64,000 nucleotides of DNA, taken from contig CAJOFQ010000006.1 in the NCBI GenBank assembly GCA_905233955.1, forward strand, positions 6,706-70,705. Reading direction: 5' to 3'. Source of the DNA: an uncultured Lachnospiraceae bacterium (GTDB lineage: Bacteria > Bacillota > Clostridia > Lachnospirales > Lachnospiraceae). Made by a program: the position numbers and the translations under genes. Under the pieces are notes generated by a model. It did no database searches and was not told the DNA's origin. It saw only the letters and a list, made by a program, of their open reading frames with translations. This document shows positions 7,278-52,852 of the stretch, piece by piece; within the stretch, counting starts at the first letter, position 1, and each line of letters starts with the position of its first letter.

Positions 7278-7424
7278 AGCTTCAATCTCCATAGAGAATA
7301 ACTAGTCCAGTTCAGACACCATATCTTGTACATAATAATAGAAAAAACACAAAATATCAACTGTTCTTCCGTTTTAGGATACAGATTTTGGGAAATAATA
7401 TCCTATATCTGTAATCGGCTGATT

Positions 7425-20455: not shown

Positions 20456-22690
20456 GTGTTTACAAGAAGTGTCTTTTGTCGTGTACTAATAATACTTTGT
20501 ATAATTATGATACTTTTTACCACGGCACTCACCACATTATCCTACCGCAGGATGCAGGCGGATACATATGTACACGACGGGGTACTTAATACAGTAAGCA
20601 CCGTAAGGAAGCTTAATTATTCATTGAGTTTTGGGAAGCCTCTGGACAAATATTACGGTCTTAAGGAACTTCTTGAAGAGGTAGAAGAGCTTTCCTGGGA
20701 TATCACAGGTGTTTGTATCACAGATCTTGAAGGAAATGTCATAGAAAGCACCGGTGAAGAGATCAGTGGTATCACATTACAAAATCCCGATAACGAGTAC
20801 CTGGTAAGAAGGGACGGAGTTTATGCCTTCGTCCCTTTTGATGCGGGTAATATCATAATCAAACAGAACATAAGTGTGATCAATGACCGGACAAGGGATT
20901 ATCTTAAATTTTTATGGGGCATTGATGCATTGATCCTGCTGGCGGTAATTGTGTCAGCACTGATTACATCCCTTGTCGCGTCCTCTAATGGCATATCATT
21001 AAAGCGTTTCAAAATAACAAGTATTCTGATACTGGTAACGGCGCAATCCCTCCTGGGTGTTTTGTCCATGCGCCATCTTGATAATTCCTATCAACAATCT
21101 ATAGCAAGGATTGCCGAGACTACCTCTCTTACCGTGGAGAGGGATATCAATGCAGTTATAGAAAAGGGTGTTCCTTATGGACAGCTTAAGGGTCTTGATG
21201 GCTATCTATCTAATCTGGTAGACGATATACCGGAGCTTTCCAATCTGTCGCTGGGAATGCAGACCCAGGCTACTCAAAATGACATGACAGGCTTTGATCT
21301 TGATATTGACGGTATGGACAGTGGTGCTGTCAGCCTTCTATGTTACTATGACAAAGAGCTTATACATTCACAGAGGATCAACAATATTATTGATATTCTT
21401 ATCCTTGTTTTGATAACTGTCTTTATAAGTCTGGAGGCGTCTACATTTCTGACCAGGCATATGGAAATGAAAAGTGAACGAAAAAAAGGTCAGCTTTATC
21501 TGCCCGGCTTTCGGCTTTTTGTCTTTATACAGGGAATTACATTTACATTGGATGTAGGCTTTTTCTCCGTCTTGAGTGCAAAGCTTTTTAGAGCGATGGA
21601 GCTGCCCCAGTCCATGTCTTTTTTAAGCGGTATGCCAAACACCATGTACTCGGTGGCTGTGCTCATAGGCCTACTGGGGTGCAGCTCTTTGATACGCCGT
21701 TTTGGTATGAAGCGAATGCTGATCTTCGGTATAGTAATGGGCATCGTTGGTTATGTGCTGTGTGCCCTTGCCGTCAACCTGTCGCTTTTGATAATGGCAC
21801 GCTTCGTCTATGGCTTCTGTGACGGTATCATAATCAATTCCATACGGCTTTATGCCTCGTCTCAATCTGACCCCAAGATGCATACCAGGATTCTGGTGGA
21901 ATACATGGCTGCCGCCAATCTTGGAGTAAGCTGCGGCGTAGTGATCGGAGGTCTGATAGCTGATGTGGCATCCTATACCTTTGTTTTTGTTACAGGTGCG
22001 CTGCTTGGTATAGTATGTCTCTTTCTCATATTGTTTGCAGGCTTCCCTGACAGGCAGGAGGATGGCGATAAGATGTCATTCCTTACGGCTCTTAAGGAAA
22101 TGAAAAAACCAAGGGTCGCGCTTTTTATGATTGCAGCAGTCATTCCTGTTTACATTGCCACATTGTTTGTTGCGTTTACCTTTCCGCTGTTTGGTGACGA
22201 AGCGGGCTTTTCCAATTCCATGGTCTCCGGTTGCCTGATGCTTAATTTTATTATAGTTGCTTATCTGACGGATCCCATCTCTGATTGGGTAATAAAGAGA
22301 GTCAGACCGGATATAGCTATGGGAATATATATGCTGCTTCAGACCGCCAGCATAGGTGTTTTTGTGTTATCAGGGAGCGTTTGGGCTGCTATACTGGCAC
22401 TTGTTCTGACAAGTCTGTGGGATTGCTTTGGCATGGTGGTAATGGACCTGGCACTTGATCATGTGGAGGGTACATCCACGGAAAAATGTACGCTCCTGCA
22501 AATGCTATTCGGAAAATTTGGTCTGGTCGTAGGACCGGTTGCCATCACTTCATGGCTGGGCAAGGGAGCAGCGGGCGCAACCGGCGTCATCGTTATAATA
22601 ATGCTGGTTGGAGCTCTAATATACGGAAGTTCCCTGGTATTCGGTTACCATTCACAGCTTCGTAAGCCGGATGAAGGAATTAAGGAGTAG
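20456..22690 (+). CDS. Fusion protein: N-terminal membrane-anchored extracytoplasmic sensor-like region (~330 aa) + C-terminal MFS transporter (~12 TM)
   Basis: GTG start 7 nt after GGGAGGAG, only 24 nt after the ftsH stop. TM1, then a ~125-aa loop with Cache/PDC-like character (..ITDLEGNVIESTGE..), then 2 TM, a second ~110-aa loop, then an MFS-like body. Confidence 0.75.
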   Translation: MFTRSVFCRVLIILCIIMILFTTALTTLSYRRMQADTYVHDGVLNTVSTVRKLNYSLSFGKPLDKYYGLKELLEEVEELSWDITGVCITDLEGNVIESTGEEISGITLQNPDNEYLVRRDGVYAFVPFDAGNIIIKQNISVINDRTRDYLKFLWGIDALILLAVIVSALITSLVASSNGISLKRFKITSILILVTAQSLLGVLSMRHLDNSYQQSIARIAETTSLTVERDINAVIEKGVPYGQLKGLDGYLSNLVDDIPELSNLSLGMQTQATQNDMTGFDLDIDGMDSGAVSLLCYYDKELIHSQRINNIIDILILVLITVFISLEASTFLTRHMEMKSERKKGQLYLPGFRLFVFIQGITFTLDVGFFSVLSAKLFRAMELPQSMSFLSGMPNTMYSVAVLIGLLGCSSLIRRFGMKRMLIFGIVMGIVGYVLCALAVNLSLLIMARFVYGFCDGIIINSIRLYASSQSDPKMHTRILVEYMAAANLGVSCGVVIGGLIADVASYTFVFVTGALLGIVCLFLILFAGFPDRQEDGDKMSFLTALKEMKKPRVALFMIAAVIPVYIATLFVAFTFPLFGDEAGFSNSMVSGCLMLNFIIVAYLTDPISDWVIKRVRPDIAMGIYMLLQTASIGVFVLSGSVWAAILALVLTSLWDCFGMVVMDLALDHVEGTSTEKCTLLQMLFGKFGLVVGPVAITSWLGKGAAGATGVIVIIMLVGALIYGSSLVFGYHSQLRKPDEGIKE

Positions 22691-22701: not shown

Positions 22702-23874
22702 ATGAGAAAAAGATATACAATAATCGCAGCAGCCAGTGCGCTGTGTCTTATTATAACCATATCAGCCTGCGGTATCACATCTTTGGGTTTTGGCGGTACT
22801 AATGTTGTTAATGCCGCTCCATTGGTCAGGATCGGTTATGTCCAGACAAGAGAATACGGTCCCTTCACCCAGGTTCTTTTAGCTACAGCCAGAGAGTTAG
22901 TGGCTCAAGGCTGTCTTTCCAGGTCATTTTTGGATAAATATAAGGATGCTAATTTTGAAGAGCATTTCAGCGACGGAGATACAAAAAAGCTGTGGGATGA
23001 TATATGTGATGCGACGGTGGAAGGCGCTTCATACCAGTTTTCACCGGAGGCATTTTTTGATATGAATACCATGTCGGAGGATGAATACCCTTCAATGGTT
23101 AATCGCAGTGATGTGGATATTACTTTTACAATGGGGACAGACCCAAGTGTGTATTTTTTTGAAAATGAAAAGAAAAACAAATTCATGAGTCTTTATGCTG
23201 CGGATCCCATACAGTCCGGAATTGTAAAGAGTACGACTGAGCGTTATACGGATAATTCTTATGCACTTATGGATCTGACGCCCTATCTTCGACAGCTTGA
23301 TGCGGGCTATAAGTTTTTGAAATTTAAAAAACTTGGCGTAGTTTATGAAGATTCCCGGGCTGCCTATGATTATTCGGACATAAGGGAGATCGAGCAGAAA
23401 GCGAAGGAGCATGGATTTGAGGTGGTCTATGAGCATGTCAATGAGCCTGTGTCTGAAGATGATTTCGAACGCTATTACAGTGAATTAAAACAGGCCTATC
23501 GCAGTCTTGTGGACAAGGGGATTGACTGCCTTTATGTTACCATATCCTCTATCAATTATGAGGAAAAAATGCAGGAGCTTTTAGATGATGCGATCATTCC
23601 GGCAGGGGTTTATTCCCTGGCTCAGGATGATGTGGCTCCTGTGGCATATGGAGTTTTGTTCGGGATGAGCATAAGCGATGCCGAGGAAGTGGCTGCCTAT
23701 GTATTCAAACAGATCAGGCTGTATGCCGAAGATGGGGTACCCTTTGACGAGCTTGATATGGTATATGAGTGTACGCCTAAGATTGCACTGAATTATACTA
23801 CGGCACAAAGGGTAGGTTTCGACCTTACTTTTGAAGATCTTCAACTGGTGGACAGGATCTATAAGAATGAGTGA
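22702..23874 (+). CDS. Orphan SBP-like lipoprotein (distant ABC_sub_bind/PF04392-like fold)
   Basis: Signal peptide with lipobox ISAC. VRIGYVQTREYG.. and LKFKKLGVVYEDSRAAY.. resemble the two lobes of the SBP encoded at 13845. No adjacent ABC permease or ATPase. Confidence 0.55.
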   Translation: MRKRYTIIAAASALCLIITISACGITSLGFGGTNVVNAAPLVRIGYVQTREYGPFTQVLLATARELVAQGCLSRSFLDKYKDANFEEHFSDGDTKKLWDDICDATVEGASYQFSPEAFFDMNTMSEDEYPSMVNRSDVDITFTMGTDPSVYFFENEKKNKFMSLYAADPIQSGIVKSTTERYTDNSYALMDLTPYLRQLDAGYKFLKFKKLGVVYEDSRAAYDYSDIREIEQKAKEHGFEVVYEHVNEPVSEDDFERYYSELKQAYRSLVDKGIDCLYVTISSINYEEKMQELLDDAIIPAGVYSLAQDDVAPVAYGVLFGMSISDAEEVAAYVFKQIRLYAEDGVPFDELDMVYECTPKIALNYTTAQRVGFDLTFEDLQLVDRIYKNE

Positions 23875-26800
23875 GAGTAATAGAATGAAAATTAAAAAGA
23901 CTTTATATCCGGACCGTATTAGATCTGCCATAAAAAGCTTTGGCAAAAACCTGGCTTTATCCTTTGGGGACAGAAGATACAGCTATAACGATCTGGATAG
24001 TATTACGGGGCGATTGGCTGCGTATCTGATATCACAGGATATCGGCTGCGGGGATATCGTCTCTGTTCTTATATCCCGAAATGAATATATTACCATTGCG
24101 CCTCTTGGCATAATCCGCAGTGGTGCAGCATATCAGCCTCTTGATATCTCACATCCCACCGATCGTATCCGCAGTATGATTGAAAATGCCGGATCACAGA
24201 TTGTTATAGTGGAAAAAGAGTATGAGCATCTGTTGGATGATGTGAACTTTGGAACTGACAGAAAAAAGCTCTATATCGAAGATATACCGCTCCTGCCAGA
24301 GCCTGAAGAAGGTCCCTGGCCGTATGCCGATCCGGAGGATGACTTTGCAATATTGTACACCTCAGGTTCCACGGGAGAACCCAAAGGGATAGAGATAACA
24401 CATAGAAATATAATTAGCCTTCTGGACTGGTATATCGACTATTATGGTGTGGATGAAAACAGCCGGATAGGTCAGCATACCAGCTATGTTTTTGACCCTG
24501 CCATTGCGGAATCCATGCTGCCTCTGGCTGCAGGAGCTGCAATTTTTATTATTCCGGAGGAGATCCGGACGGATCTGTTTTTGCTGGATCGCTTTTATAA
24601 TGAAAACAAAATAACCCACGCATCACTGACGACCCAGCTGGGGCGTCAGTTTGCCATGCATATGGAGGGAAGAACCCTTAAGCATCTTGTGGTAGGCGGA
24701 GAGGCATTAATGTCTGTTGCGCCTCCAAAGAATTACACCCTCCACAACGGTTATGGTCCTGCAGAAGGAACCTTACTGATTACCATATTTGCTGTTTTGA
24801 AGGAATATCCCAACAAGGTTCCTCTGGGCAGCCCTCTTCCAGAGGTTAAGATCTATCTTTTAGATGAGAAGGGCAGACAGGTTTCTGACGGCCAGCCGGG
24901 AGAGCTGTGCTTTGCAGGAGCTCATGTTACAAAGGGCTATCTGAACCGCCCGGATCTTACCGCAAAGGTTTATACCGTCAACCCATTTTCTGACGATCCC
25001 GAATACAGCAGGCTGTATCATACGGGGGATCTGGTAAAAAAGGACGCAGATGGATACTACGAATATCTGGGAAGGATCGACCGGCAGGTTAAGATCCGTG
25101 GATTTCGTATCGAGCCAGCCGAGATAGAGGCTATTCTCAAAGGCTGTGAAGGCATAGATGACGCAGTTGTGGTTCCCCTGGATATGGGAAATGAAAAAAT
25201 GCTGGCGGCCTATTATCTTTCAAATGCTTCAGTGGATGAGAAACTGCTGTCGGATCTGATATTGTCCCAAAAGCCATCCTACATGCTGCCTTCGTTTTTC
25301 ATACATATGGATTCTTTTCCGCTTACCATTAACGGGAAAATAGATTATAACGCTCTGCCAGGACCCATGCGCGAAGCAACCAGCCAATACGAGGAGCCAA
25401 AAAGTGATACTGAAAGGGTTTTGGCCGGGCTGTACCGCGATATATTGGGCATAGAACATGTTGGACGGCAGGATAATTTTCTGCACCTTGGCGGTACATC
25501 CATGTCGTCGGCGATACTTTTATATAATATTTTCGATGCCTTTTCCTGCCGGATCGGTATAAGGGATATAATGGAGCATCCCGTACTTTATGATCTGGCA
25601 GACAGGATCGATGAGAAGCTTTTGTCAAAGGAGACTGATAATATCAGCTTCGAACAAAAATTACTGCCCTTGCAGGCTGAGTACGATGTAAGCTATTCGC
25701 AAAATCGTATGTTTACCGCCCAGGAGCTTTTGGGTTATGACGATCCTACATATCTTTTGCGACTAAAAATATCTATAGATGGCGCATTTGACAAATCAAG
25801 GATACAGAATACGATAAAGGCTTTAATTCTGCGTCATGAAAGCTTAAGGACAGAATTTTTCATTTCACAAGACAGCTTAAAGCAAATTATAGTAAAGCCC
25901 ACAGAAGCATGGCTTAATGACGCGGTTATTAGAACCGAAGACAGGGACCTTTTCCCTGGATTTTCTATGGAGGAAGCACCACTTTTTGCATGGAGCGCAT
26001 CTGAAAATGAGATTGAATTTCAGTGGCACCATATCATAAGCGATGGAGTCAGCAGTTCGCTTTTTGCACAGGAATTTATTGAGGCTTATAACGGTAATAC
26101 CCTCCCGCCCCTTAGGGTTCATCAAAAAGAATACGCCGAATACGAAAAACAATACATGGCTTCCCCGCTATATAAAAAGAGCCTGGATAGCTGGAGAAAT
26201 TATTCTTCCGATCATGTTGATGCAGAAGAAATCAAGCTGCCCCAGGATAATACATTTTTACCGGGGATGGAGCGTATAGCAGGCCATTTTAAGAGTGTTC
26301 TTCCAAAATCGCTTTCCGAAGAGATCAATATTTTTTGCCATGAAAAAAACATAACGGTATATATGTTTTTGCTTTCTGTTTTTTCCATACTGCTTCACAG
26401 GTATACCCGGATGGAGAAGTTGATACTTGGAACGGTTATGGATGGCAGAAATGAACCCGGTACTGATAAGCTGCAGGGTATGTTTGTAAATACGCTGCCC
26501 TTATTTATTACAGTAAGTGATGATTATTCCATATCAGATTTTTACAGTAAGATTTCTGAGATTGTACTTTTTTCCATGGAGAATCAGTCCGTACCATTGG
26601 AGGAAATTGCAGACGCTTTTTCCAGAATGGGAGGATACCAAAGGACTTCCCGTGGGAGCTTATTATTTGATTATTTATTCGTACTTCAGAATTTTAAGAA
26701 CCAGGTTGAGGATATTGACGGATGTGAAGTAAGCCTGGAATATGGTGACGGCGGCAGAGCGATGTACGATCTGACCCTTGAAATGGAGGAAATGGAGGAT

Positions 26801-29800
26801 GGATTCCACTGTGATTTTGAATATTGCAGGGGGTTGTTTTCTGAGGAAAGTATCCGAGTATTTGCTCATCATTTTGATGTGCTGCTTTTAAATTGCCTAA
26901 GTTCAAGTGACAAACAGACTATAGGCTCTCTATCTGTCATTGATGAAAATGAACAAAAAAAGCTGCTCTATGATTTTCAGGGAGTGCCCTTGGATGAAAG
27001 AGCTTTGGTATATACAGTAGTTGATCTTTTGAGGGATCGTGCAAGAGAAAATCCAGACAGCACTGCTGTGGTTTTTTGTGATGAAGCTCTGTCCTACAGG
27101 GGATTGTGGGACAAATCAGGTTTACTTGCCAATAAGTTAAATCAATTATTTGACCAAAATACAGAAAATCATGCAGTCATTTTCGCAAATCGGGGAATAT
27201 CCATGATTACCACAATATGGGCTGTACTTCGGGCAGGGGGAGCGTATGTCCCGGTGTCGCCGGAGTATCCTGATGAGCGGATAAGCTACATACTTGATGA
27301 CTGTGATGCTGTATGTGTTATAGAGTGTGACGCTAAGGTACCTGATGCCGTAAGAGAACTTTTGTCACAGAGGAATATTCCTGTAATCTCAGGGAACGAC
27401 TTAGGTGATACAGTTGAGTTTCATGATGGCTTGCAACATGAGGTGCAAATACATGAAAATAAGCTTCCGGGCTATCAAATACATGGCTCAAACGCTTCAG
27501 GGATAATGCTTCAAAAGGACTCCGAGGCTTATATGATATATACCTCCGGAACTACCGGAGAGCCTAAGGGAGTTGTAGTAAGTCATGGCAACCTTTCAGC
27601 CCTGCTTTTTGCCTACAATGATATATACAAACTGACACCACAGGATGCTGTGCTGCAATTTGCGGATTTTGTTTTTGATCAATCCGTATGGGAGATCTTC
27701 CACATTCTGACAGTTGGCGGAACACTTTGCATGATTACTTCCGATATGGCCCGTGATCCGCAAAAGCTGTCTTATTATTGTAATAAAAATCATGTCACGG
27801 TATCCATGCAGACACCGGGTTTTTTGCGGCTTTTAGACCCTGATGAATTCAAGGGTATAAGGCTTGTAGATGTGGGTGGAGAGGCTCCTGATTATAAGCT
27901 TCTTAAGGCGTGGTCAAAGGGCAGAACCGTTTTAAACACCTATGGCCCCACTGAGACTACGGTAAATGCCGCAAGCTATATCTTCAGTGAAAATGGCAGG
28001 CAATTAACGGCTGAAAAAGACAATGTTCCCATAGGAAAACCGATTGACGGAACACGCATTTATATTTTAGACGGGGATCGGCTGTGCGGCATTGGTATGC
28101 CGGGAGAGCTGTGTATTGCCGGTGCCCAGGTGACCCTGGGATATTACAATAGACCACAGCTTACCGGGGAGAAATTTGTTAAAGATCCGTTTTTTGACGG
28201 AGCAATGTACAGGAGCGGTGATCTGGCAAGGTACCTTCCTGATGGAAATATCGAATTTTCAGGCCGCATAGACGATCAGATCAAACTTCGGGGATACAGG
28301 ATAGAGCTGGGGGAAATTGAATCCGCCATTAGAAGGGTTCCCGGAATAAAGGATGCCGTTTGTACCCTGCAGGATACCGGTGATAATAAGACCCTGTGCG
28401 GGTATTATATTTTAAATGATACAGATACTGCTGTTACGGAGGATGAGCTTCGACAGCTTTTATCGGAGCAGCTGCCCTCATACATGGTTCCGGTTCATTT
28501 GATGCCCCTTTTGGAATTTCCACTTACAGTATCCGGCAAGATTAATAAAAGGGCTCTGCCAAAATTCGATATGGTCTGGCAGGATGGTGACGAGGGTGCC
28601 AAAACCGATATAGAAAGAGACCTTGCGGATGCCTTTGCTGCTGTACTGCAGCTTGAGCGGGTAAGTGTTACTGCGGATTTTATAGCACTTGGAGGCGATT
28701 CCATTAAAGCGATTCGTATAGTCTCGCTGCTCAGGGAAAAGGGCTACCATCTTAGTGCAGGTCATCTCCTGAAAAACAGTACAATAAGGTCAATTGCACC
28801 TCTTTTAAAAAAGACGGAGGGCATTTCCTATAAAGAGTTTGACCATGTATCGCCCACTCCGGTAATGAAGCTGTTTTTTGCTGCCGATATGCCAAATTCC
28901 CATTGGTATAATCAGTCAGTTATGCTTTTGATGAAAAATTATCCGGGCGAGAATGCCCTTAATAATGCCTTATCCGATCTGATCAGTGCTCATGGATGCT
29001 TAAGGATGATACGGAAGGATGGGGGTATTGTAATAAGGGATATTTCCAAAATGCCAAGTGTCAAGCTTGCTGTCTTCGAAAATTGCACTAAGAGCAAAAG
29101 AGAGGATATCTGCACCCGTTTACAATCCTCTATGGATCCGGACAACGGCATTGTAATGCAGGCAGCCATATTTAAAAATGACAATGAACACAGACTGTTT
29201 CTGGCCTTTCACCACCTTGTTATAGACGAGGTGTCATGGGGGATAATTCTGGAGGATCTTGACAGGCTTTTAAACCACGAAGCTTTGTATGACAGGACAA
29301 TATCATTTGGTGAATGGTCAAAAAAGCTTTGGTCCTATTCTAAGTCAGATGATTTTCTTTCTGAGAAGGCTTACTGGATGAGACAGTACAAAGAGCTAAA
29401 AAAACATGACAAGGACATACAAAGCTGGCTTTCATCTTATGAAGACTTAAATACTCAAAAAACCGGTTTTTCATCCTTATCTCTGTCGGTTTCAGATGAT
29501 ATGGCGCAAAAGCTTTCTTCAATTGCAGCATTAAAATATCAGTCCGGTATGGACGCTTTTTTGCTTGCAGTTTTGATACATACGATTAAATTACACGACA
29601 ATATTTCTTCAATTTCTATTCAGATGGAAAGTCATGGAAGGGGCAATATTGGCGATGTGCATTGCGATCGTACAGTGGGCTGGTTTACTGCTTTGTATCC
29701 GGTTTTGTTTGATGTGGCGGATACATTTGACGAGCAGATCGTTGTTGTAAAAAAAGCTCTTTTGGATGTACCAAACTACGGAATCGGATACGGATTGTTA

Positions 29801-32800
29801 TACGATGATCTGTTTCGGCAGGGTGGTATTGTATTTAACTATCTGGGTAATGAAAGAAAAAATACCTATGATAATTTTGGATTTGCAGGGGAGAGCAGCG
29901 GACTTGATATGGATGCCGCCAATGGTGATCCATATACCATTTCCATAGACATCCGTCAGGATGAGCAGGGACTTTTCATAGATGCCTGGTATGACAATGC
30001 TTTTGACGGCGTAGAGATCAAAGGACTTTTGAACTTCTATAAGTCAAAGCTTGAGGAAATATCAGAGCTTGTTCCTGACAAAAATAAGATCTATGCTCCC
30101 AATGATCTTTGTGCGGACTCCGGGATGTCACTTTCGGACTGGTACAAATTGACACAGAGGTTTTTGCCGGAAAGTGTTATGGCAATCGCCCGTCTTACAC
30201 CGCTGCAGCAGGGGATGCTCTACAGATATATCGCCGAGCCGGAGGGCAGGGCGTATTTCCTGCAGGATAAGCTTACGATATCAGGCGTATTGCAAAAAGA
30301 AAAGCTTAAAGCTGCACTTAAATTATTGTCTTTAAGATACGACGCGTTAAGAACAGTTTTTTTATACGACAATCTGGATGAACCCTGGCAGATAATATTA
30401 AAGGAACGCACTCCGGAATTTGTGGATATGTCAGATTTAGCTTTTTCTGATGTGCTTGCAATTGACGGGAAAAGAGGTTTTTCCCTGACAAAAGATCCGC
30501 TTATGCGCTTAACAGTCTGCAAACAGAAAAATGGTTCAGCAGAGATTTTGATCTCCATGCACCATATGATAACGGATGGCTGGAGTTTTCCGATTTTAAC
30601 CCGCAAGCTGATGGAATATTACAGGGATCTGTGCAGCGGTGCGGATGAGAGTATCATTGCCGGGCAGGTAAAAAAAGAGGCAGCAGATAACTGTTCCTTT
30701 ACAGATTATCTGAGATATTGCGCAGGATTAAACAGACCCAAAATCACGAAAAAATGGGTAGAATATCTGCAGGGAGCAGATGAAGGCGCGGCTCCTTATG
30801 TTTTTGATCCAGATAATAGTGATACTTTTATTTTCGCAGGGCGAAGCTTTCGTATCAGCAGGGAAATGGAAGATCGTATCAGGGCGTACACAGTCCAAAA
30901 TCATATTACCACAAGCAGCTTTTTCGGAGCGCTTTGGGGAATATTGCTGGGTTTTGAAAGCGGTGTGGAAAATGTAGTTTTTGCAGAGACTCTTTCAGGG
31001 CGCAATGCGGATATTGCCGGAATTGAGTCGGCGGTTGGAATATTCATACATACTATTCCTGTTTGCATCAGGCTAAGGGACAGTAAAACTGTGCTTGATC
31101 TCATGAAAAAAAGGCAGGAGGACTACATATCCATGCAGCCCTATGAGAATGCTGCCTTAAGTGAGATCGGCGCTGCAACAGGCTTTGGTTCTGCGCTGAT
31201 AAGGTCGTTATATGTATACGAGAATTATCCGGTGGAGGATGAAGCTGATTGGTATCATATAAATGGAATTCATGAGGAAGTGGATTACGCGATTACCTTC
31301 TGTGTGGAGGAAACAGATGGTATATCTTTGAATCTGCTGTTTGATGAGAATAAATATCACAGAGATTATATCGGACTTTTGATGGACAGGCTGATATATC
31401 TGGCACATCAGGTTCTGACGGATGAAGCCGTTACTGTTTTTTCCCTTGATCGTATTACACCAGAGGAGCAGAAACTAACGCTTTTAAATCTGGCAGGGGA
31501 GAATATGGATTTTCCGAAAAAATCCTTCCCCGAAATGTTTTTTGACCAGGCAAAAGACGACCCATCCAGGAGCGCTCTTTTGATGGATGGAAAAACCATA
31601 AGCTACGGCAAGCTCTTGAATGCTTCATGCGGACTGGCAAAAGAGATTGGACCAGGGGAAGAGAGATTTATTGCTGTAATGGCTGACAGAGGTTTTGAAC
31701 TTATAGCAAGCCTCATTGGAACGATGCTGGCAGGAGCAGCTTATGTGCCGTTGGATCCTGATTATCCTGTAGAGAGAATCAGGTATATACTTAATGACTG
31801 TGTTCCTACTTGTGTGCTTTATTATGTTAAGGAAGAACAGCCTGATGTCAGAAATTTGTTTGAGGAATATGATATTCCTGTTATTTCCACACCCATTGAT
31901 ACATTTGAATCCAAAGATCATACCTTTAAGCCAGGACAAAAGCTTATGTGTCGTCTGGCATATATGATCTATACATCAGGGACTACCGGCGAACCTAAGG
32001 GCGTTGAGATTGAACACTGCTCCCTGTCGGATATGATCTATGCCCATGAGGTTCGTTTTGGCAGCTTGTATAATGATACGGTTCTTTTTATGTCAAATTT
32101 TGTTTTTGACGCGTCTGTGCAGCAGATATTTACGCCTCTTGCCCAAGGCGGCAGAGTATGTATCATAACAAAAGAAAGGATGAACTCGTCAAAGGAGATC
32201 GCCCAATATTGCAGGGACAACAATGTTACCTTTATTGGTGCGACTAATGCGCTGCTTAGAATACTTTCCCCGGCGGATTTTGATGGTATCAGGGTTCTAA
32301 GCATCGGAGGTGATGAGGCGGATCCTGGGCTGTTTGAAAAATGGTCTCATTATTCTAAGCTTATTATCAATGACTACGGGCCCACAGAAGCTACCATACA
32401 TGCCATTTCCCATGCTTATACATCCGGGGAGAAAAGGCCTGTGCCTCTGGGAAAACCCTATCCAAATAAGCGGATATATATTATGCAGGGTGACAAGCTG
32501 TGCGGTATAGGGCAGCAGGGGGAGATCTGTATAGGTGGAAAGGGTTTGGCCAGAGGATATCACGGCAGACCGGAGCTTACAGACAGGCATTTTGGACCGG
32601 ATCCCTATTCTGATGGCAGGATATATCGTACAGGGGATCTGGGATTGTATCGCCCGGATGGGCAGGTGTTATTCAAGGGCAGAAATGATTCTCAGGTCAA
32701 GATCCGGGGATTTAGAATAGAATTACAGGAGATTGACAGCTGCCTTATGTCCTATGACGGAATAAAAGATGCTGTGACGATATGCAGGCAGGAAAAGAGC

Positions 32801-34105
32801 AGAGAAAACTACCTGATATCCTATGTGACTTCGAACAATAGGATTGAAATTAAAAAAGTCACTTCATATTTGAGAAGTCATTTGCCGGCATACATGGTTC
32901 CTGCATTTGTTATCCCCGTTGACTTTATTCCACTGAATTTCAGTGGTAAGGTTGATGTGGGAAGGCTTCCCGATCCTAAGCCCGATAAAAGAATTGAGTA
33001 CGAAAAGCCTCAAAATGATCTTGAAGAAAGAATTGCCGGATTATTTGAAAGGATCCTTGGCAGGACAAATGTAGGCAGAAATGATTCCTTTATCGACCTG
33101 GGAGGAACATCCCTTGACATGATGAGGCTTTTGTCAGGACTTAACGATCCGGGGATTCGTCTGGCTGATATAGCAAGTAACCCTACACCTGAAAGTTTAA
33201 GCGGCATTCTTCGAAACAGATATCAAAAGCAGGAAGGATGTCTTTTGCTCTGGGATGGCGATCCATATGTACCGCAGATATTCTGTGTCCCACCATCGGG
33301 AGGCATGTCATTATGTTATCTTGAGCTTTTCAGACAGATAGGATACAGGGGGCGGATCTATGGTCTTACTGACGAGAAATATAAGAGGTTCGGCAGTATG
33401 ACCATTGAAGAATTGGAAGGATATGATATACTTCGAGATGATCTGTGGGAAGCGAATCTTTTAAGCTATATGGAATCCATCCAAAGTGTCTTTAAAGCCG
33501 GTGATATCCTGATAGGCTATTCACAGGGAGGAGCGGCTGCCCATGAGCTGGCACTTAGGTTAGAAGGAATTGGCAAACCCTGTGGAAGGCTTATTATGCT
33601 GGAGGCAGTACCCTTTGGAACAGATGAATCCCGGGTGTTTGAGGCTGAAAGCGAAAATGACAGACTAAAAGCGGTAGAGAATATCTTTTTTGGCAGCGAG
33701 GTTTATAGAGATGACGAGGATGTAACAGAAATATCCTTGAAGGAAAGACTCTTGGAAATGCTGGAAGGGCATGGAAGCGCTTTGGATGAGGCCATGCTGC
33801 ACGCTTTGTTTGAAACATATCTGGTATACTCAATCAACACACTCCATCCGCTGACAATCAGCGGAAGAACCAGGGCACGGATCGACTCTGTTCTTTTGCC
33901 TGGTGATGGAGAAAAAGAGGCAGCCCAAATTATATTAAGTGACAAGGATCCTTGGATTGACTATACTTTAAAAAAGGGAGAATCCTGCAGACTGGGACAT
34001 GATGGCAATGAGCATCTGGTATTTCTGTCAAAATACAAAACACAGATAGCCGCACAGCTGAAAAAATGGCTGGAAACAGATAAGTGGAGCGAAAAAAATG
34101 CATAA
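23867..34105 (+). CDS. Trimodular non-ribosomal peptide synthetase, A-T-C(LCL)-A-T-E-C(DCL)-A-T-TE
   Basis: A3 cores are at ~24353 (LYTSGSTGEPKG), ~27533 and ~31963 (MIYTSGTTGEPKG). A8 motifs GRxDxQVKIRGFRIE and A10 Lys occur three times. Carrier Ser codons are at 25499 (LGGTS), 28700 (LGGDSIKAI) and 33110 (LGGTS). C1 has HHIISDG at ~26027. E-domain motifs are PVMKLF, HHLVIDEVSW (~29210), ESHGRG, RTVGWFTALYP, PNYGIGYG and FNYLG. C2 has LTPLQQGMLY and HHMITDG (~30560). TE has GYSQG (33514-). Start is ATG 23867, overlapping the upstream stop, or alternatively ATG 23885. Confidence 0.95.
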   Translation: MSESNRMKIKKTLYPDRIRSAIKSFGKNLALSFGDRRYSYNDLDSITGRLAAYLISQDIGCGDIVSVLISRNEYITIAPLGIIRSGAAYQPLDISHPTDRIRSMIENAGSQIVIVEKEYEHLLDDVNFGTDRKKLYIEDIPLLPEPEEGPWPYADPEDDFAILYTSGSTGEPKGIEITHRNIISLLDWYIDYYGVDENSRIGQHTSYVFDPAIAESMLPLAAGAAIFIIPEEIRTDLFLLDRFYNENKITHASLTTQLGRQFAMHMEGRTLKHLVVGGEALMSVAPPKNYTLHNGYGPAEGTLLITIFAVLKEYPNKVPLGSPLPEVKIYLLDEKGRQVSDGQPGELCFAGAHVTKGYLNRPDLTAKVYTVNPFSDDPEYSRLYHTGDLVKKDADGYYEYLGRIDRQVKIRGFRIEPAEIEAILKGCEGIDDAVVVPLDMGNEKMLAAYYLSNASVDEKLLSDLILSQKPSYMLPSFFIHMDSFPLTINGKIDYNALPGPMREATSQYEEPKSDTERVLAGLYRDILGIEHVGRQDNFLHLGGTSMSSAILLYNIFDAFSCRIGIRDIMEHPVLYDLADRIDEKLLSKETDNISFEQKLLPLQAEYDVSYSQNRMFTAQELLGYDDPTYLLRLKISIDGAFDKSRIQNTIKALILRHESLRTEFFISQDSLKQIIVKPTEAWLNDAVIRTEDRDLFPGFSMEEAPLFAWSASENEIEFQWHHIISDGVSSSLFAQEFIEAYNGNTLPPLRVHQKEYAEYEKQYMASPLYKKSLDSWRNYSSDHVDAEEIKLPQDNTFLPGMERIAGHFKSVLPKSLSEEINIFCHEKNITVYMFLLSVFSILLHRYTRMEKLILGTVMDGRNEPGTDKLQGMFVNTLPLFITVSDDYSISDFYSKISEIVLFSMENQSVPLEEIADAFSRMGGYQRTSRGSLLFDYLFVLQNFKNQVEDIDGCEVSLEYGDGGRAMYDLTLEMEEMEDGFHCDFEYCRGLFSEESIRVFAHHFDVLLLNCLSSSDKQTIGSLSVIDENEQKKLLYDFQGVPLDERALVYTVVDLLRDRARENPDSTAVVFCDEALSYRGLWDKSGLLANKLNQLFDQNTENHAVIFANRGISMITTIWAVLRAGGAYVPVSPEYPDERISYILDDCDAVCVIECDAKVPDAVRELLSQRNIPVISGNDLGDTVEFHDGLQHEVQIHENKLPGYQIHGSNASGIMLQKDSEAYMIYTSGTTGEPKGVVVSHGNLSALLFAYNDIYKLTPQDAVLQFADFVFDQSVWEIFHILTVGGTLCMITSDMARDPQKLSYYCNKNHVTVSMQTPGFLRLLDPDEFKGIRLVDVGGEAPDYKLLKAWSKGRTVLNTYGPTETTVNAASYIFSENGRQLTAEKDNVPIGKPIDGTRIYILDGDRLCGIGMPGELCIAGAQVTLGYYNRPQLTGEKFVKDPFFDGAMYRSGDLARYLPDGNIEFSGRIDDQIKLRGYRIELGEIESAIRRVPGIKDAVCTLQDTGDNKTLCGYYILNDTDTAVTEDELRQLLSEQLPSYMVPVHLMPLLEFPLTVSGKINKRALPKFDMVWQDGDEGAKTDIERDLADAFAAVLQLERVSVTADFIALGGDSIKAIRIVSLLREKGYHLSAGHLLKNSTIRSIAPLLKKTEGISYKEFDHVSPTPVMKLFFAADMPNSHWYNQSVMLLMKNYPGENALNNALSDLISAHGCLRMIRKDGGIVIRDISKMPSVKLAVFENCTKSKREDICTRLQSSMDPDNGIVMQAAIFKNDNEHRLFLAFHHLVIDEVSWGIILEDLDRLLNHEALYDRTISFGEWSKKLWSYSKSDDFLSEKAYWMRQYKELKKHDKDIQSWLSSYEDLNTQKTGFSSLSLSVSDDMAQKLSSIAALKYQSGMDAFLLAVLIHTIKLHDNISSISIQMESHGRGNIGDVHCDRTVGWFTALYPVLFDVADTFDEQIVVVKKALLDVPNYGIGYGLLYDDLFRQGGIVFNYLGNERKNTYDNFGFAGESSGLDMDAANGDPYTISIDIRQDEQGLFIDAWYDNAFDGVEIKGLLNFYKSKLEEISELVPDKNKIYAPNDLCADSGMSLSDWYKLTQRFLPESVMAIARLTPLQQGMLYRYIAEPEGRAYFLQDKLTISGVLQKEKLKAALKLLSLRYDALRTVFLYDNLDEPWQIILKERTPEFVDMSDLAFSDVLAIDGKRGFSLTKDPLMRLTVCKQKNGSAEILISMHHMITDGWSFPILTRKLMEYYRDLCSGADESIIAGQVKKEAADNCSFTDYLRYCAGLNRPKITKKWVEYLQGADEGAAPYVFDPDNSDTFIFAGRSFRISREMEDRIRAYTVQNHITTSSFFGALWGILLGFESGVENVVFAETLSGRNADIAGIESAVGIFIHTIPVCIRLRDSKTVLDLMKKRQEDYISMQPYENAALSEIGAATGFGSALIRSLYVYENYPVEDEADWYHINGIHEEVDYAITFCVEETDGISLNLLFDENKYHRDYIGLLMDRLIYLAHQVLTDEAVTVFSLDRITPEEQKLTLLNLAGENMDFPKKSFPEMFFDQAKDDPSRSALLMDGKTISYGKLLNASCGLAKEIGPGEERFIAVMADRGFELIASLIGTMLAGAAYVPLDPDYPVERIRYILNDCVPTCVLYYVKEEQPDVRNLFEEYDIPVISTPIDTFESKDHTFKPGQKLMCRLAYMIYTSGTTGEPKGVEIEHCSLSDMIYAHEVRFGSLYNDTVLFMSNFVFDASVQQIFTPLAQGGRVCIITKERMNSSKEIAQYCRDNNVTFIGATNALLRILSPADFDGIRVLSIGGDEADPGLFEKWSHYSKLIINDYGPTEATIHAISHAYTSGEKRPVPLGKPYPNKRIYIMQGDKLCGIGQQGEICIGGKGLARGYHGRPELTDRHFGPDPYSDGRIYRTGDLGLYRPDGQVLFKGRNDSQVKIRGFRIELQEIDSCLMSYDGIKDAVTICRQEKSRENYLISYVTSNNRIEIKKVTSYLRSHLPAYMVPAFVIPVDFIPLNFSGKVDVGRLPDPKPDKRIEYEKPQNDLEERIAGLFERILGRTNVGRNDSFIDLGGTSLDMMRLLSGLNDPGIRLADIASNPTPESLSGILRNRYQKQEGCLLLWDGDPYVPQIFCVPPSGGMSLCYLELFRQIGYRGRIYGLTDEKYKRFGSMTIEELEGYDILRDDLWEANLLSYMESIQSVFKAGDILIGYSQGGAAAHELALRLEGIGKPCGRLIMLEAVPFGTDESRVFEAESENDRLKAVENIFFGSEVYRDDEDVTEISLKERLLEMLEGHGSALDEAMLHALFETYLVYSINTLHPLTISGRTRARIDSVLLPGDGEKEAAQIILSDKDPWIDYTLKKGESCRLGHDGNEHLVFLSKYKTQIAAQLKKWLETDKWSEKNA

Positions 34106-35894
34106 CAATCACAAAAAAGTAAGTCTAATAACAAAATTCATTGTAATGTTTACTGTCTTTGGAGTAATATCCACGCTGGTAAGCGGGATATTTACCTTTA
34201 TGACACAGACCAGGATCTACCACAATGAATGCGAGAGTAATCTTAAAAATATCACAGATCAGTTGAATTCAATGATACAGGATGACGGCGAGGATTTCAT
34301 TGATGTTTTGGATTACTTCAAGGAGCACAGAGACGAGATGCATATTAAGCCGGAATCAGCCGGTGATTATCAGCCGGAGCTTTTGGCATTTCGTAAATTA
34401 TTCGCCCAAAAATATCCGAATAAGACTTACGGAGTGGATATTACTTTTTCCGAAATGGATGATGATCTGCAGAAGGTTTATGCAGAATATAAGGTGGATT
34501 ACTGGATGACAATGTTTTCTCAGGCGTCAGAATCCTTTAACCTTGCGTACACCTATTTCATCTATCCTGATCCTGAGCCGGACATCACTTATTTTATCGA
34601 TCCCCTTCCGGAAACAAAGGAGGTCAATGGTGAAGAGTACTATTCACTTGGATTTCACGGTTTTGAAGATCCCGAAAAATATAAAATGGTGTGGGAGGCA
34701 TGGCACACCGGCAAGAATCCCTCGGGCTTCGATGTCTTTGATAATGAGTTCGGATATACTTACGCTTATTATTCTCCGGTCTGGATTGACAGTGAAGAGA
34801 TAGGTCTTGTCTGTGCTGAAATATCCGTGGAAAGGGTTCACAGCACCATAATACACGATGTGCTGCTCTTAAGTACAGGGATGATCGTTGCTATCGTGAT
34901 CGGCATTTTTATTATGGTCATGTTGCTGCGCAAGATCTTTTTGTACAGGATTTTAAATCTCGAAAAAAATATTGCGCTTTACTCGAATTCCAAGGATGTA
35001 TCCCTGGCCGGAGCTATACAGCAGCAGGAACAGGGGGATGATGAGATCAGAAGCCTGTCCGACCAGTTTGCGTCCATGATTACTGAGTTAAAGAATTATA
35101 TGGACAATCTGCAGCAGGTTACTGCTGAAAAAGAGCGTATTGGAGCTGAGCTTTCCGTGGCTACCACTATCCAGGAGGGTATGTTGCCGCGTATTTTCCC
35201 ACCCTATCCTGACCGAAAGGAATTTGATCTTTACGCATCTATGGATCCTGCCAAGGAAGTGGGAGGAGATTTTTACGATTTCTTTATGGTGGATGAGGAT
35301 CATATTGCGCTGGTAATGGCTGATGTATCCGGCAAGGGTGTCCCTGCGGCGCTTTTCATGGTAATTGCCAAGACTCTTATTAAAAATGCCGCCCAGATGG
35401 GAAAAGACCCTTCTGAAACTTTGGAATACGCCAATGACCAGCTCGCCGACAATGAAGGACAGATGTTTGTTACTGTATGGATGGCAATAATCGAGATATC
35501 CACAGGCAAGGGAATAGCAGCCAACGCCGGACATGAGCATCCTGCCCTCAGGCATGAAAATGGCAAATACGAGCTTGTGGTTTACAGACATTCTCCGGCA
35601 GTGGCTACGATGGAGGGTATTCCCTTCCGTCAGCACGAGTTTGAGCTTCAGCCGGGAGATTCGCTGTTTGTATATACTGATGGTGTGCCGGAGGCGACTG
35701 ACGCCCATGACGAACTTTTTGGAACGGATCGTATGATAGAGGCCTTGAATCAGGATCCTGACGCCTCCCAGGATGTGGTGCTTGCCAATGTACGAAAGGC
35801 AGTGGACGCCTTTGTTAAGGATGCTCCGCAGTTTGACGATCTTACCATGCTGGGTTTCAAGTATTACGGGGTCGAAGGGAAACATGATTCATGA
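34098..35894 (+). CDS. Transmembrane receptor-type PP2C (SpoIIE/RsbU-like) Ser/Thr phosphatase with extracytoplasmic Cache-like domain and HAMP-like linker
   Basis: TM1 (aa ~12-35), a ~220-aa loop (..GYTYAYYSPVWIDSEEIGLVCAEISV..), TM2, an amphipathic linker, then PP2C motifs GGDFYDFF (~35262), ADVSGKGVPAALFM and DGVPEA. The ATG overlaps the NRPS stop by 8 nt. Confidence 0.85.
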   Translation: MHNNHKKVSLITKFIVMFTVFGVISTLVSGIFTFMTQTRIYHNECESNLKNITDQLNSMIQDDGEDFIDVLDYFKEHRDEMHIKPESAGDYQPELLAFRKLFAQKYPNKTYGVDITFSEMDDDLQKVYAEYKVDYWMTMFSQASESFNLAYTYFIYPDPEPDITYFIDPLPETKEVNGEEYYSLGFHGFEDPEKYKMVWEAWHTGKNPSGFDVFDNEFGYTYAYYSPVWIDSEEIGLVCAEISVERVHSTIIHDVLLLSTGMIVAIVIGIFIMVMLLRKIFLYRILNLEKNIALYSNSKDVSLAGAIQQQEQGDDEIRSLSDQFASMITELKNYMDNLQQVTAEKERIGAELSVATTIQEGMLPRIFPPYPDRKEFDLYASMDPAKEVGGDFYDFFMVDEDHIALVMADVSGKGVPAALFMVIAKTLIKNAAQMGKDPSETLEYANDQLADNEGQMFVTVWMAIIEISTGKGIAANAGHEHPALRHENGKYELVVYRHSPAVATMEGIPFRQHEFELQPGDSLFVYTDGVPEATDAHDELFGTDRMIEALNQDPDASQDVVLANVRKAVDAFVKDAPQFDDLTMLGFKYYGVEGKHDS

Positions 35895-37789
35895 CCAAGG
35901 TTATAGAAGAACAGCTTAGCCGGCTTCCTGATAAGCCCGGAGTATATCTTATGCACAATGCCAGGGATGAGATCATCTACGTTGGCAAGGCAAAAAGCCT
36001 AACCAAACGGGTGCATCAGTATTTTCAGCCTTCTCATGACGAGGGAGTAAAAAAACAGCAGATGGTCCGCCAGATCCACTATTTTGAATACATAGTGTGT
36101 GATTCTGAGCTGGAGGCTCTGGTCCTTGAGAATAATTTCATCAAGGAACATCGTCCCAAGTATAATACTATGCTCAGGGATGACAAGACCTATCCCTACA
36201 TCAAGGTAACAACCTACGAGGATTATCCAAGGGTTGTGCTGGCCAGAAGAACTGAAAAGGACGGCTCCAAATATTTCGGACCCTTTCCCAGCGGCGGGGC
36301 TGTACACGAGACGATTGAACTGGTTCAGAAATTATTCCATCTTAGAACCTGCAACAGGCAGTTTCCGCAGCAATTTGGCAAGGAACGCCCCTGTTTGAAT
36401 TTTCACATGCAGCAGTGTGACGGGGTGTGTCAGGGAACCATATCCAAGGAAGATTATGGCAAAAGAATTGATCAGGCGCTGGATTTTTTAAACGGTAATG
36501 ACAGCAGTATTCTGGCGGATCTTAACGAAAAAATGGAGCAGGCTTCTGCCAATATGGAATTTGAAAAGGCGGTTACATATCGTGATCTGATAAAAGCGGT
36601 CAAGGTGTGCATGAGCCGCCAAAAGGTTACGAGCTTTGACAATCTTGACAAGGACATTATTGCCCTGGCACAGGATGAAGAAGACGCCCTGATACAGATA
36701 TTTTTCATCAGAAGCGGCAAGATGATCGGCAGGGAGCATTTCTTTATGAATGTCTGCCTGGATGATGAAAAAGACAGCGTAATGGCCGCTTTTTTGCAGC
36801 AGTATTACAGCAAGACGCCGTTAATTCCAAAAGAGATATACATATCCCTTTCAGTGCCCGAGGAGGATATGCTAACCCAGTGGCTGTCGGAGCGCAGGGG
36901 AGCTAAGGTGTATCTTCATACTCCCAAGCGCGGAGCCAATAATCGTCTGGTAAAGATGGCTGAAAAAAATGCCCTTATGACCCTTTCCGCAGATAAAGAA
37001 CGGCTAAAGCGTGAGGAAGGCCGTACAATAGGCGCTATGAAGGAGATTGCTGCCATACTTAATCTTCCCGGGATTATGAGAATGGAGGCCTTTGATATTT
37101 CAAATACCAACGGCTATGAATCAGTGGGATCTATGGTAGTATTTGACAAAGGAAAACCTCTAAGAAGCGCTTACAGAAAATTCCGTATAAAATCGGTCAT
37201 AGGTCCCAATGACTATGCCTCCATGAAGGAGGTTCTTACAAGGCGTTTTACCCATGGACTTAAAGACAGGGATGAATCTGCCGGGGAAGGTTTTTCCCAT
37301 TTTCCCGACATTATCATGATGGACGGAGGAAAGGGACAGGTTCATATAGCCCTGGAGGTCCTGCATGAATTAGGACTTGACATACCGGTGGCCGGAATGG
37401 TCAAAGACGATCATCACCGTACCAGAGGACTTTATTATAACGATGTGGAGCTTCCCATTGACAAGCATTCCGAGGGCTTTAAGCTGATAACCCGTTTGCA
37501 GGACGAGGCTCACAGATTTGCCATTACATATCATAAATCCTTAAGAGGCAAGGCGCAGGTTCACAGTTTTTTAGATGACATTCCGGGCATTGGTCCGGCC
37601 AGGCGCAAAAGCCTTATGAGAAGCTTTGCATCCTCAGACGATCTGAAACAGGCGTCCATTGAGGAACTTGAAGCGGTTGATGCCATGAATCACAAGGCGG
37701 CTGTAAGCTTGTATGAATTTTTGCATCAGGAGCAGATATCTTCTGCCGCAGTTGGTCAGACCGGCGTGGAGGAGAAAAGTACGCTTTGA
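35891..37789 (+). CDS. uvrC: Excinuclease ABC subunit C
   Basis: GIY-YIG N-terminus (PGVYLMHN..IIYVGKAKSL), UVR motif, endonuclease V and (HhH)2 C-terminus. The ATG overlaps the upstream TGA (ATGA). Confidence 0.95.
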   Translation: MTKVIEEQLSRLPDKPGVYLMHNARDEIIYVGKAKSLTKRVHQYFQPSHDEGVKKQQMVRQIHYFEYIVCDSELEALVLENNFIKEHRPKYNTMLRDDKTYPYIKVTTYEDYPRVVLARRTEKDGSKYFGPFPSGGAVHETIELVQKLFHLRTCNRQFPQQFGKERPCLNFHMQQCDGVCQGTISKEDYGKRIDQALDFLNGNDSSILADLNEKMEQASANMEFEKAVTYRDLIKAVKVCMSRQKVTSFDNLDKDIIALAQDEEDALIQIFFIRSGKMIGREHFFMNVCLDDEKDSVMAAFLQQYYSKTPLIPKEIYISLSVPEEDMLTQWLSERRGAKVYLHTPKRGANNRLVKMAEKNALMTLSADKERLKREEGRTIGAMKEIAAILNLPGIMRMEAFDISNTNGYESVGSMVVFDKGKPLRSAYRKFRIKSVIGPNDYASMKEVLTRRFTHGLKDRDESAGEGFSHFPDIIMMDGGKGQVHIALEVLHELGLDIPVAGMVKDDHHRTRGLYYNDVELPIDKHSEGFKLITRLQDEAHRFAITYHKSLRGKAQVHSFLDDIPGIGPARRKSLMRSFASSDDLKQASIEELEAVDAMNHKAAVSLYEFLHQEQISSAAVGQTGVEEKSTL

Positions 37790-52781: not shown

Positions 52782-52852
52782 AAGATATTCGTGGTGTCAG
52801 ACTTTTTTGCACTGGTATTACATATTAGCATCATGTGTTTGGGGGAGATGAC

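Follow-up and report, generated by a model that had tools for sequence, protein, structure and literature searches.

A predicted three-module nonribosomal peptide synthetase for a small L-D-L tripeptide in an uncultured Lachnospiraceae bacterium

Few nonribosomal peptide synthetase (NRPS) products are known from gut Firmicutes that are strict anaerobes, and most of these products are uncharacterized. The NRPSs of gut Clostridia that yield dipeptide aldehydes and pyrazinones have the domain order C-A-T-C-A-T-R (C, condensation; A, adenylation; T, carrier; R, reductive release). ACV synthetase (ACVS), which makes the L-L-D tripeptide of penicillin biosynthesis, has the order A-T-C-A-T-C-A-T-E-TE (E, epimerization; TE, thioesterase), and its TE selects the D-isomer. 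Sevadicin, a further tripeptide, has the structure D-Phe-D-Ala-Trp. The existence of sevadicin as an NRPS tripeptide of Paenibacillus larvae is cited in PMC4234257. Here we analyzed a stretch of 64,000 nucleotides from an uncultured Lachnospiraceae bacterium (assembly GCA_905233955.1, contig CAJOFQ010000006.1, positions 6,706 to 70,705; hereafter, the window), which carries an NRPS gene at 23867..34105 on the + strand. The encoded protein has the domain order A-T-C-A-T-E-C-A-T-TE, and, judged by its sequence, it is probably a working linear three-module NRPS that makes a small L-D-L tripeptide.

Domain order and specificity codes

The gene is a single open reading frame (ORF) of 10.2 kb, with an ATG at 23867 and a stop codon at 34103-34105, and encodes 3,412 aa. 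Public gene calls agree with this start and length, and a public protein from a 75.9-kb contig (P0385) is 100% identical to the window protein; five variants share its length. Pfam searches of the full-length protein and of its fragments detected three AMP-binding, three AMP-binding_C, three PP-binding, three Condensation-family and one Thioesterase domain. Their placement bore out the domain order that an earlier note on this DNA had read from core motifs. The motifs quoted in that note were all present in the translation where expected, namely, NGYGPAEGT (aa 294), GGDSIKAI (aa 1609), HHLVIDEVSW (aa 1782), ESHGRG (aa 1921), RTVGWFTALYP (aa 1935), FNYLG (aa 1990), LTPLQQGMLY (aa 2110) and GYSQG (aa 3217), as well as PVMKLF and PNYGIGYG. 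The domain E-values ranged from 1e-49 to 1e-74, and chance matching is therefore not an issue.

AMP-binding already starts at aa 23, in agreement with the statement that a starter C domain is absent. Lipoinitiation was ruled out, because there is no space for a starter C domain ahead of A1. By its defining sequence features, the enzyme is a type I modular NRPS, a known kind of enzyme that follows standard NRPS logic. It is a very isolated member of this known kind and not a new kind.

The three A domains, which like all other domains are encoded on the + strand, were A1 (23933..25339, aa 23-491; Pfam AMP-binding, 198.8 bits, followed by AMP-binding_C), A2 (27032..28540, aa 1056-1558; 249 bits) and A3 (31538..32950, aa 2558-3028; 214 bits). 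Their TIGR01733 scores (352, 377.6 and 357.1, respectively) were all over the cut-off of 317.4, and the adenylation core motifs A3 to A10 were found in each of them. The A5 motif of A1, NGYGPAEGT, had been called unusual, and YGPAE is indeed uncommon yet recurrent (17 of ~1,070 motifs).

Specificity codes were extracted using the GrsA-PheA segment as the reference. This segment is 100% identical to residues 234-526 of 1amu_A (1AMU), and the PheA numbering is exact. Alignments to PheA with MAFFT and with hmmalign agreed on DPASVGGLLK for A1 (D210, P211, A214, S253, V275, G277, G295, L303, L304 and K491), DQWMDGTVNK for A2 (D1271, Q1272, W1275, M1314, D1335, G1337, T1358, V1366, N1367 and K1558) and DAQGSGDIHK for A3 (D2748, A2749, Q2752, G2791, S2812, G2814, D2836, I2844, H2845 and K3028). 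The codes derived by hand in the earlier note were the same, with no pocket residue changed. Asp235 and the A10 lysine (Lys517) are retained in A1, A2 and A3, as had been claimed. The activation of an aryl, fatty or keto acid by A1 was considered and ruled out, because both residues are present.

The code-extraction pipeline was run on a sample of ~980 other A domains, comprising 120 homologs of A1 and 859 A domains of 149 large NRPSs. The latter background consists of proteins from the A2 search ranked by their summed score; these are giant multi-module NRPSs and not the nearest neighbors. On the 120 A1 homologs, the textbook Leu code DAWFLGNVVK was returned 78 times. From the 859 A domains, DFWNIGMVHK (61 times), DAFWLGGTFK, DVWHFSLVDK, DVGEIGSIDK and others were returned. 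Textbook codes for Leu, Thr, Ser and Val were thus recovered from other A domains, indicating that the pipeline is sound.

For assignment to a known substrate, identity at 8 or more of the 10 code positions was required. Against a table of ~60 known codes, each of the three A domains matched at 5/10 positions or fewer and the threshold was not reached. The statement that none of the codes matches a textbook code therefore held against this table. The strings of the three codes were not found in a literature search. Among the 859 background domains, the closest codes matched A1 at 7/10 and A3 at 6/10, once each. The code of A2 matched DQWSDSTVNK, which occurs twice in the metagenomic NRPS P0304 (L053, 10001-23479), at 8/10 and DQFGEGTVNK in P0301 at 7/10. 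P0304 and P0301, which provided the sole near matches to A2 in this background, are uncharacterized multi-protein NRPSs, and their A2-like modules are not followed by an E domain. The two codes form a small recurrent type that resembles A2. As judged from the table of ~60 codes and the ~980-domain sample, the three codes of the window protein fall outside the assignable ones.

The codes are in part retained in relatives. The A1 domains of P0001 and L054 (~71% identity) keep D-P-x-S-V-G-G, and that of P0001, whose sequence covers the later code positions as well, differs from the window A1 at positions 239, 330 and 331. In L052, the A3 relative (51% identical) retains Asp322. With low confidence, the A1 pocket may be described as roomy and apolar (A239, S278, V299, G301, G322, L330 and L331), the A2 pocket as polar or acidic with a closed floor (W239, D299, T322 and N331) and the A3 pocket as open and polar or acidic (Q239, G278, S299, D322 and H331). 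This pocket chemistry would weakly suggest that residue 1 is hydrophobic (large and apolar) and that residues 2 and 3 are polar or cationic.

Condensation, epimerization and the proposed route to the product

All three T domains scored above the PP-binding cut-off of 20.8 bits. T1 (25421..25609, aa 519-581) scored 29.7 bits and has Ser545 in GGTSM, T2 (28619..28798, aa 1585-1644) scored 38.7 bits and has Ser1612 in GGDSI, and T3 (33026..33205, aa 3054-3113) scored 27.5 bits and has Ser3082 in GGTSL. GGDSI was present in 137 of 143 sampled carriers that precede an E domain vs 31 of 664 that precede a C-type domain. T2 thus has the form of a carrier that feeds an E domain, as proposed in the earlier note. 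In T1 and T3, GGTSM (25490-25504) and GGTSL (33101-33115) replace the usual GGHSL; GGTSL was rare, with 6 occurrences among the 664 carriers ahead of C-type domains.

The two C domains resemble different classes of solved C domains. C1 (25673..26968, aa 603-1034; Pfam, 229 bits; HHIISDG at aa 721) matched solved LCL domains (TycC6, 1e-46; LgrA C2, 5e-42) better than solved DCL domains (TycB1, 5e-17; BacC, 1e-15; PvdL, 3e-10), and is of the LCL type by this sequence comparison. In contrast, C2 (30188..31474, aa 2108-2536; Pfam, 195 bits; LTPLQQGML at aa 2110 and HHMITDG at aa 2232) matched solved DCL domains, that is, TycB1 (6.5e-46), the C domain that follows the E domain of BacC (2.8e-45), SrfA-C (5e-42), McyB (2e-40) and PvdL (5e-34), far better than the LCL domains TycC6 (7e-10) and LgrA C2 (5e-7). 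The DCL type that had been assigned to C2 from its N-terminus is consistent with these matches.

Between T2 and C2 lies the E domain (28871..30067, aa 1669-2067; Pfam Condensation, 168.5 bits). It has His1783 in HHLVIDE, Asp1787, Glu1921 in ESHGRG, its version of the EGHGRE motif, and, at the position where Gly is usual, Glu1788. The motifs RTVGWFT, PNYGIGYG and FNYLG are intact and can be aligned to those of the E domains of GrsA and BacC. When the middle domain was compared with solved structures, all 10 of 10 matches were E domains (BacC, GrsA, TycB, TycA and PvdL; 7e-42 to 2e-29). The motif set of the domain is complete, as the earlier note had it, and its solved relatives are all E domains. 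Three independent markers (the E domain, the DCL-type C2 and the GGDSI form of T2) agree, and residue 2 is predicted to be the D-isomer.

The TE occupies 33275..34066 (~aa 3137-3400) and has Ser3219 in GYSQG, Glu3246 in IMLEAVP and His3383 in NEHLVFLSKYK. When the C-terminal 288 aa alone were searched, the PF00975 score was 31.2 bits, above the cut-off of 26.4 bits; in the full-protein scan it was 23.8 bits. The solved NRPS TE 7crn matched the region (5.8e-6). A search of 5.8 billion proteins yielded just two homologs of the TE (43% and 40% identity), both of which are the C-terminal ends of NRPS fragments. Ser3219, Glu3246 and His3383 are invariant over the window TE and the two homologs. In 7crn and FenTE, the residue aligned to Glu3246 (33602-33604) is the Asp of the triad. 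The assignment to type I TEs therefore stands as far as the PF00975 score and GYSQG are concerned; the putative triad acid is Glu instead of the Asp of such TEs.

Domain order, catalytic motifs, amino-acid-type A domains, the LCL/E/DCL pattern, and the Ser and His of the TE are all read directly from the translated sequence, and they are the basis for the following proposed mechanism. A phosphopantetheinyl transferase (PPTase) from elsewhere would prime Ser545, Ser1612 and Ser3082. A1, A2 and A3 would each adenylate one alpha-amino acid and load it onto their own carrier. C1 (LCL) would then couple the first L-residue to the second, which is carried by T2, and the E domain (His1783 and Glu1921) would equilibrate the resulting dipeptide on T2 at its C-terminal residue. 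C2 (DCL) would take the D-epimer only and couple it to L-residue 3 on T3. The tripeptide would pass to Ser3219 of the TE and be released; this step would most likely be hydrolytic and give a linear L-D-L tripeptide whose N-terminus is free. The adjacent major facilitator superfamily (MFS) protein would export the product.

Evidence against a working synthetase and the alternatives

Several observations weigh against a working synthetase that makes an L-D-L tripeptide; they concern missing partner genes, the E domain and the TE. Regarding the partner genes, no family match to a PPTase was found among ORFs of at least 150 aa in the 64-kb window, and an MbtH-like gene was not found in the window. 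Tailoring genes were likewise not found there. A PPTase gene may lie in another part of the genome.

The lack of a PPTase and of tailoring genes in the window, together with the unusual E and TE motif residues, would fit a decaying or silent remnant that gives no product in its host. In contrast, six independent assemblies each contain the intact 10.2-kb ORF. The strain variants in these six assemblies all encode 3,412 aa, with 0-19 residue differences per variant relative to the window protein. Across the variants, 29 residues are polymorphic, none of which is a code or catalytic residue, and A1 contains 0 polymorphic residues vs 4.0 expected. In the comparison with L049, 9 of the differences in the NRPS gene are synonymous and 8 are nonsynonymous (rough dN/dS of ~0.3); for ftsH, which lies upstream in the window, the counts are 10 and 1, respectively. 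By these substitution counts, the NRPS is under purifying selection that is less strict than that on ftsH. Further, the adjoining genes are translationally coupled to the NRPS gene and conserved. We consider it highly improbable that the gene is a remnant.

As for the E domain, its TIGR01720 score was 37.2 bits, under the cut-off of 74.2 bits; this model matched the E domain only, and not C1 or C2. The low score is read as divergence, not as the absence of an E domain, from sequence comparison. The domain is indeed very divergent, and its best homolog in the 5.8-billion-protein database is ~30% identical. Among 101 E-domain homologs, the residue after HHxxxD was G in 76, A in 15, T in 3, V in 2, and S, W, N, R and L in 1 each, and Glu was found in none. 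Further, 8 of the 29 polymorphic residues lie in the E domain vs 3.4 expected (P=0.016). This excess may reflect relaxed constraint or simply variable loops.

The absence of Glu from the homologs, the TIGR01720 score and the surplus of polymorphic residues would all be compatible with an E domain that the Gly-to-Glu change has made a catalytically idle relic, in which case the product would be an all-L tripeptide or synthesis would stall at C2. The earlier note had named this change as a possible sign of inactivity. However, His1783, Asp1787, Glu1921 and the race motifs are intact, and the position that follows HHxxxD is variable among E domains, with a residue other than Gly in 25 of the 101 homologs. 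The core motif of E domains is given as HHxxxD in reviews, and its second His and the Asp were shown to be important in GrsA (PMC10510592). The Gly of the motif is not invariant (Rausch et al., PMC1894796). All six strain variants keep HHLVIDE. The DCL-type C2 and the GGDSI carrier have also been kept, which would be pointless if the E domain were dead. HHLVIDE is unusual, yet this change does not show that the domain is inactive, and an idle E domain seems quite unlikely to us.

Regarding the TE, the column of the triad acid was inspected in 43 TE-domain hits of other proteins (~40 informative). Asp occupied it in 37 and Glu in 0; two further hits have Asp one residue earlier. An AlphaFold model of the TE, built from a three-sequence alignment, was of low confidence (pLDDT 51). 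When this model was used for a fold search, NRPS and polyketide synthase TEs came first (TM ~0.45), and the top matches were the oligomerizing Vlm2 TE and the cyclizing TE 7crn. At such values, these matches support the fold class only, that is, a thioesterase/alpha-beta-hydrolase fold.

Release may also follow a different logic. In gramicidin S and enterobactin biosynthesis, release is coupled to oligomerization and cyclization. The TE of the window protein could similarly join tripeptidyl units, for example into a cyclic hexapeptide, or use a side-chain amine to close a small lactam. The lineage of this TE is very small and divergent and has an unusual, putative Ser-Glu-His triad, the two top fold matches of the low-confidence model are an oligomerizing and a cyclizing TE, and the acidic residues in the A2 and A3 pockets fit side chains that bear an amine. 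However, no sequence feature distinguishes hydrolyzing from cyclizing TEs, and the fold matches (pLDDT 51, TM ~0.45) extend to the fold class only. We consider oligomerization or cyclization unlikely and prefer hydrolysis to a linear L-D-L tripeptide.

The four-gene set and comparison with known synthetases

Three genes on the + strand adjoin the NRPS gene. The first (20456..22690) encodes a 744-aa MFS fusion protein with MFS_1 at aa 391-694 and weak matches to efflux families; its N-terminal ~380 aa matched no family. This protein is a likely, putative exporter of the NRPS product. The second (22702..23874) encodes a predicted lipoprotein of 390 aa with a signal/lipobox-like N-terminus. No Pfam or NCBIfam family was found for the lipoprotein, which gave faint hints of a solute-binding protein only. 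A kinship to the PF04392 binding protein encoded at 13845-14900 was considered, and none was found. The third gene (34098..35894) encodes a membrane-bound PP2C/SpoIIE phosphatase of 598 aa (SpoIIE at aa 399-588, 147.6 bits), in which a transmembrane segment, an extracytoplasmic region of ~215 aa, a second transmembrane segment and a coiled region precede the C-terminal PP2C/SpoIIE phosphatase domain. At either end, the NRPS gene overlaps its neighbor by 8 nt (the lipoprotein stop with the NRPS start, and the NRPS stop with the PP2C start); intergenic gaps are otherwise at most 24 nt. A promoter and terminator scan of this tightly packed locus was uninformative.

The set lies between ftsH (18362-20431) and uvrC (35891-37789). 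Upstream, uvrB, uvrA, mreB, a gene for a c-di-GMP regulator, ABC transporter genes, a gene for an SSF symporter and ftsH run on the same strand as the NRPS gene, and so do uvrC, a UPF0029-family (PF01205) gene, a topoisomerase gene and others downstream.

Relatives of the NRPS gene have parts of the same neighborhood. In L048, which comes from a Lachnospiraceae metagenome-assembled genome, and in L054, the MFS fusion and lipoprotein genes lie upstream of the NRPS relatives (~70% protein identity); the lipoprotein is 81% identical at the amino acid level in L054. In L051 and L052, which are more distant (40-50% identity), a 44% identical PP2C homolog directly follows the TE homolog. The four genes thus travel together, since L048 and L054 share the upstream pair and L051 and L052 share the PP2C gene. 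From these relatives, the MFS fusion, lipoprotein, NRPS and PP2C genes are a conserved four-gene set at 40-80% protein identity. In L048 (1-925), the sequence ahead of the MFS gene is unrelated to that of the window; the left border of the set is therefore defined, and the set occurs in differing contexts.

In L052, the A-T part and the TE are in different reading frames, with the change at ~833-968, and were called as two genes that overlap; either the assembly is wrong here or the frameshift is real. A scan of contigs with exact query 8-mers returned only unrelated A domains (21-34% identity) and a short 55% segment in L047. A metagenome scan added one partial relative, L054. PADLOC detected nothing relevant among the neighbors, and a search of the literature on NRPSs of the rumen and of Lachnospiraceae gave general surveys only.

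Two other loci of the window were noted. A BspA-type leucine-rich-repeat gene (5937-7292) between uvrB and uvrA is the sole sizeable gene on the minus strand. At 52101-57331, an AIR-carboxylase-like gene and a nickel-insertion (PF01969) gene adjoin each other and are followed by a gene for a FIST-domain hybrid histidine kinase of 1,051 aa with receiver and Hpt domains, which is seemingly unrelated to the NRPS.

The conserved link to the PP2C gene, as seen in these genome comparisons, hints at a signaling role for the peptide. In an uncultured lineage of gut Lachnospiraceae, the four-gene set could act as a self-contained circuit for peptide signaling, with a product that is neither an antibiotic nor a siderophore; we give this idea a low probability. 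The MFS transporter, which in this reading carries a fused extracytoplasmic domain, would export an L-D-L tripeptide composed of amino acids with unreported specificity codes. This tripeptide would be bound by the lipoprotein, by the sensor domain or by both, and be read out by the PP2C phosphatase. A signaling role, if true, would be of more interest than one more peptide.

The proposed L-D-L tripeptide synthetase is also well suited to expression work and could help to widen the tables of specificity codes. The gene is complete and intact in several strains, its 10.2 kb suit synthesis and heterologous expression, and a very small product is expected. Biochemical assignment of the A-domain substrates would give new training points for specificity predictors, because the three codes fall outside those assignable from the table and sample used here. 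Further, the putative Ser-Glu-His triad and HHxxxDE, as natural variants, make it possible to probe how strict the TE and epimerase motifs are.

Among described systems, the small pyrazinone NRPSs of anaerobic gut Firmicutes, as generally known, resemble the window enzyme in their size, their hosts and their few or absent tailoring genes. However, they start with a C domain and release their products reductively through R, whereas the window enzyme starts with an A domain, contains an E domain and ends with a TE. By description, the sevadicin synthetase is likewise a three-module NRPS of Firmicutes for a short linear tripeptide with D-residues; also by description, it differs in the number of E domains and in having recognizable codes. 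With ACVS, the window enzyme shares, at the level of general architecture, a single three-module protein without a starter C domain, with one E domain and a terminal TE, and, as predicted for the window enzyme, a tripeptide with a free N-terminus and one D-residue. The sizes of ACVS and of the sevadicin synthetase are also similar to that of the window enzyme. In ACVS, the E domain belongs to the last module, whereas that of the window enzyme belongs to module 2 and would be read by a DCL-type C domain.

The nearest solved relatives of every domain are found in GrsA, TycA/TycB, LgrA and BacC. LgrA matches A1-T1-C1-A2-T2 (E=3e-248), and the E domains of BacC, GrsA, TycA and TycB match that of the window enzyme (7e-42 to 2e-35). 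The window enzyme differs from the gramicidin S (GrsA), tyrocidine (TycA/TycB), linear gramicidin (LgrA) and bacitracin (BacC) synthetases in its low identity to them, the presence of only three modules on one protein, its codes and the Glu at the triad Asp position of its TE. Nevertheless, it has a common logic with the Bacillus and Brevibacillus synthetases GrsA/GrsB, TycA/TycB, LgrA and BacC, in which a GGDSI carrier is followed by an E domain and then by a DCL-type C domain.

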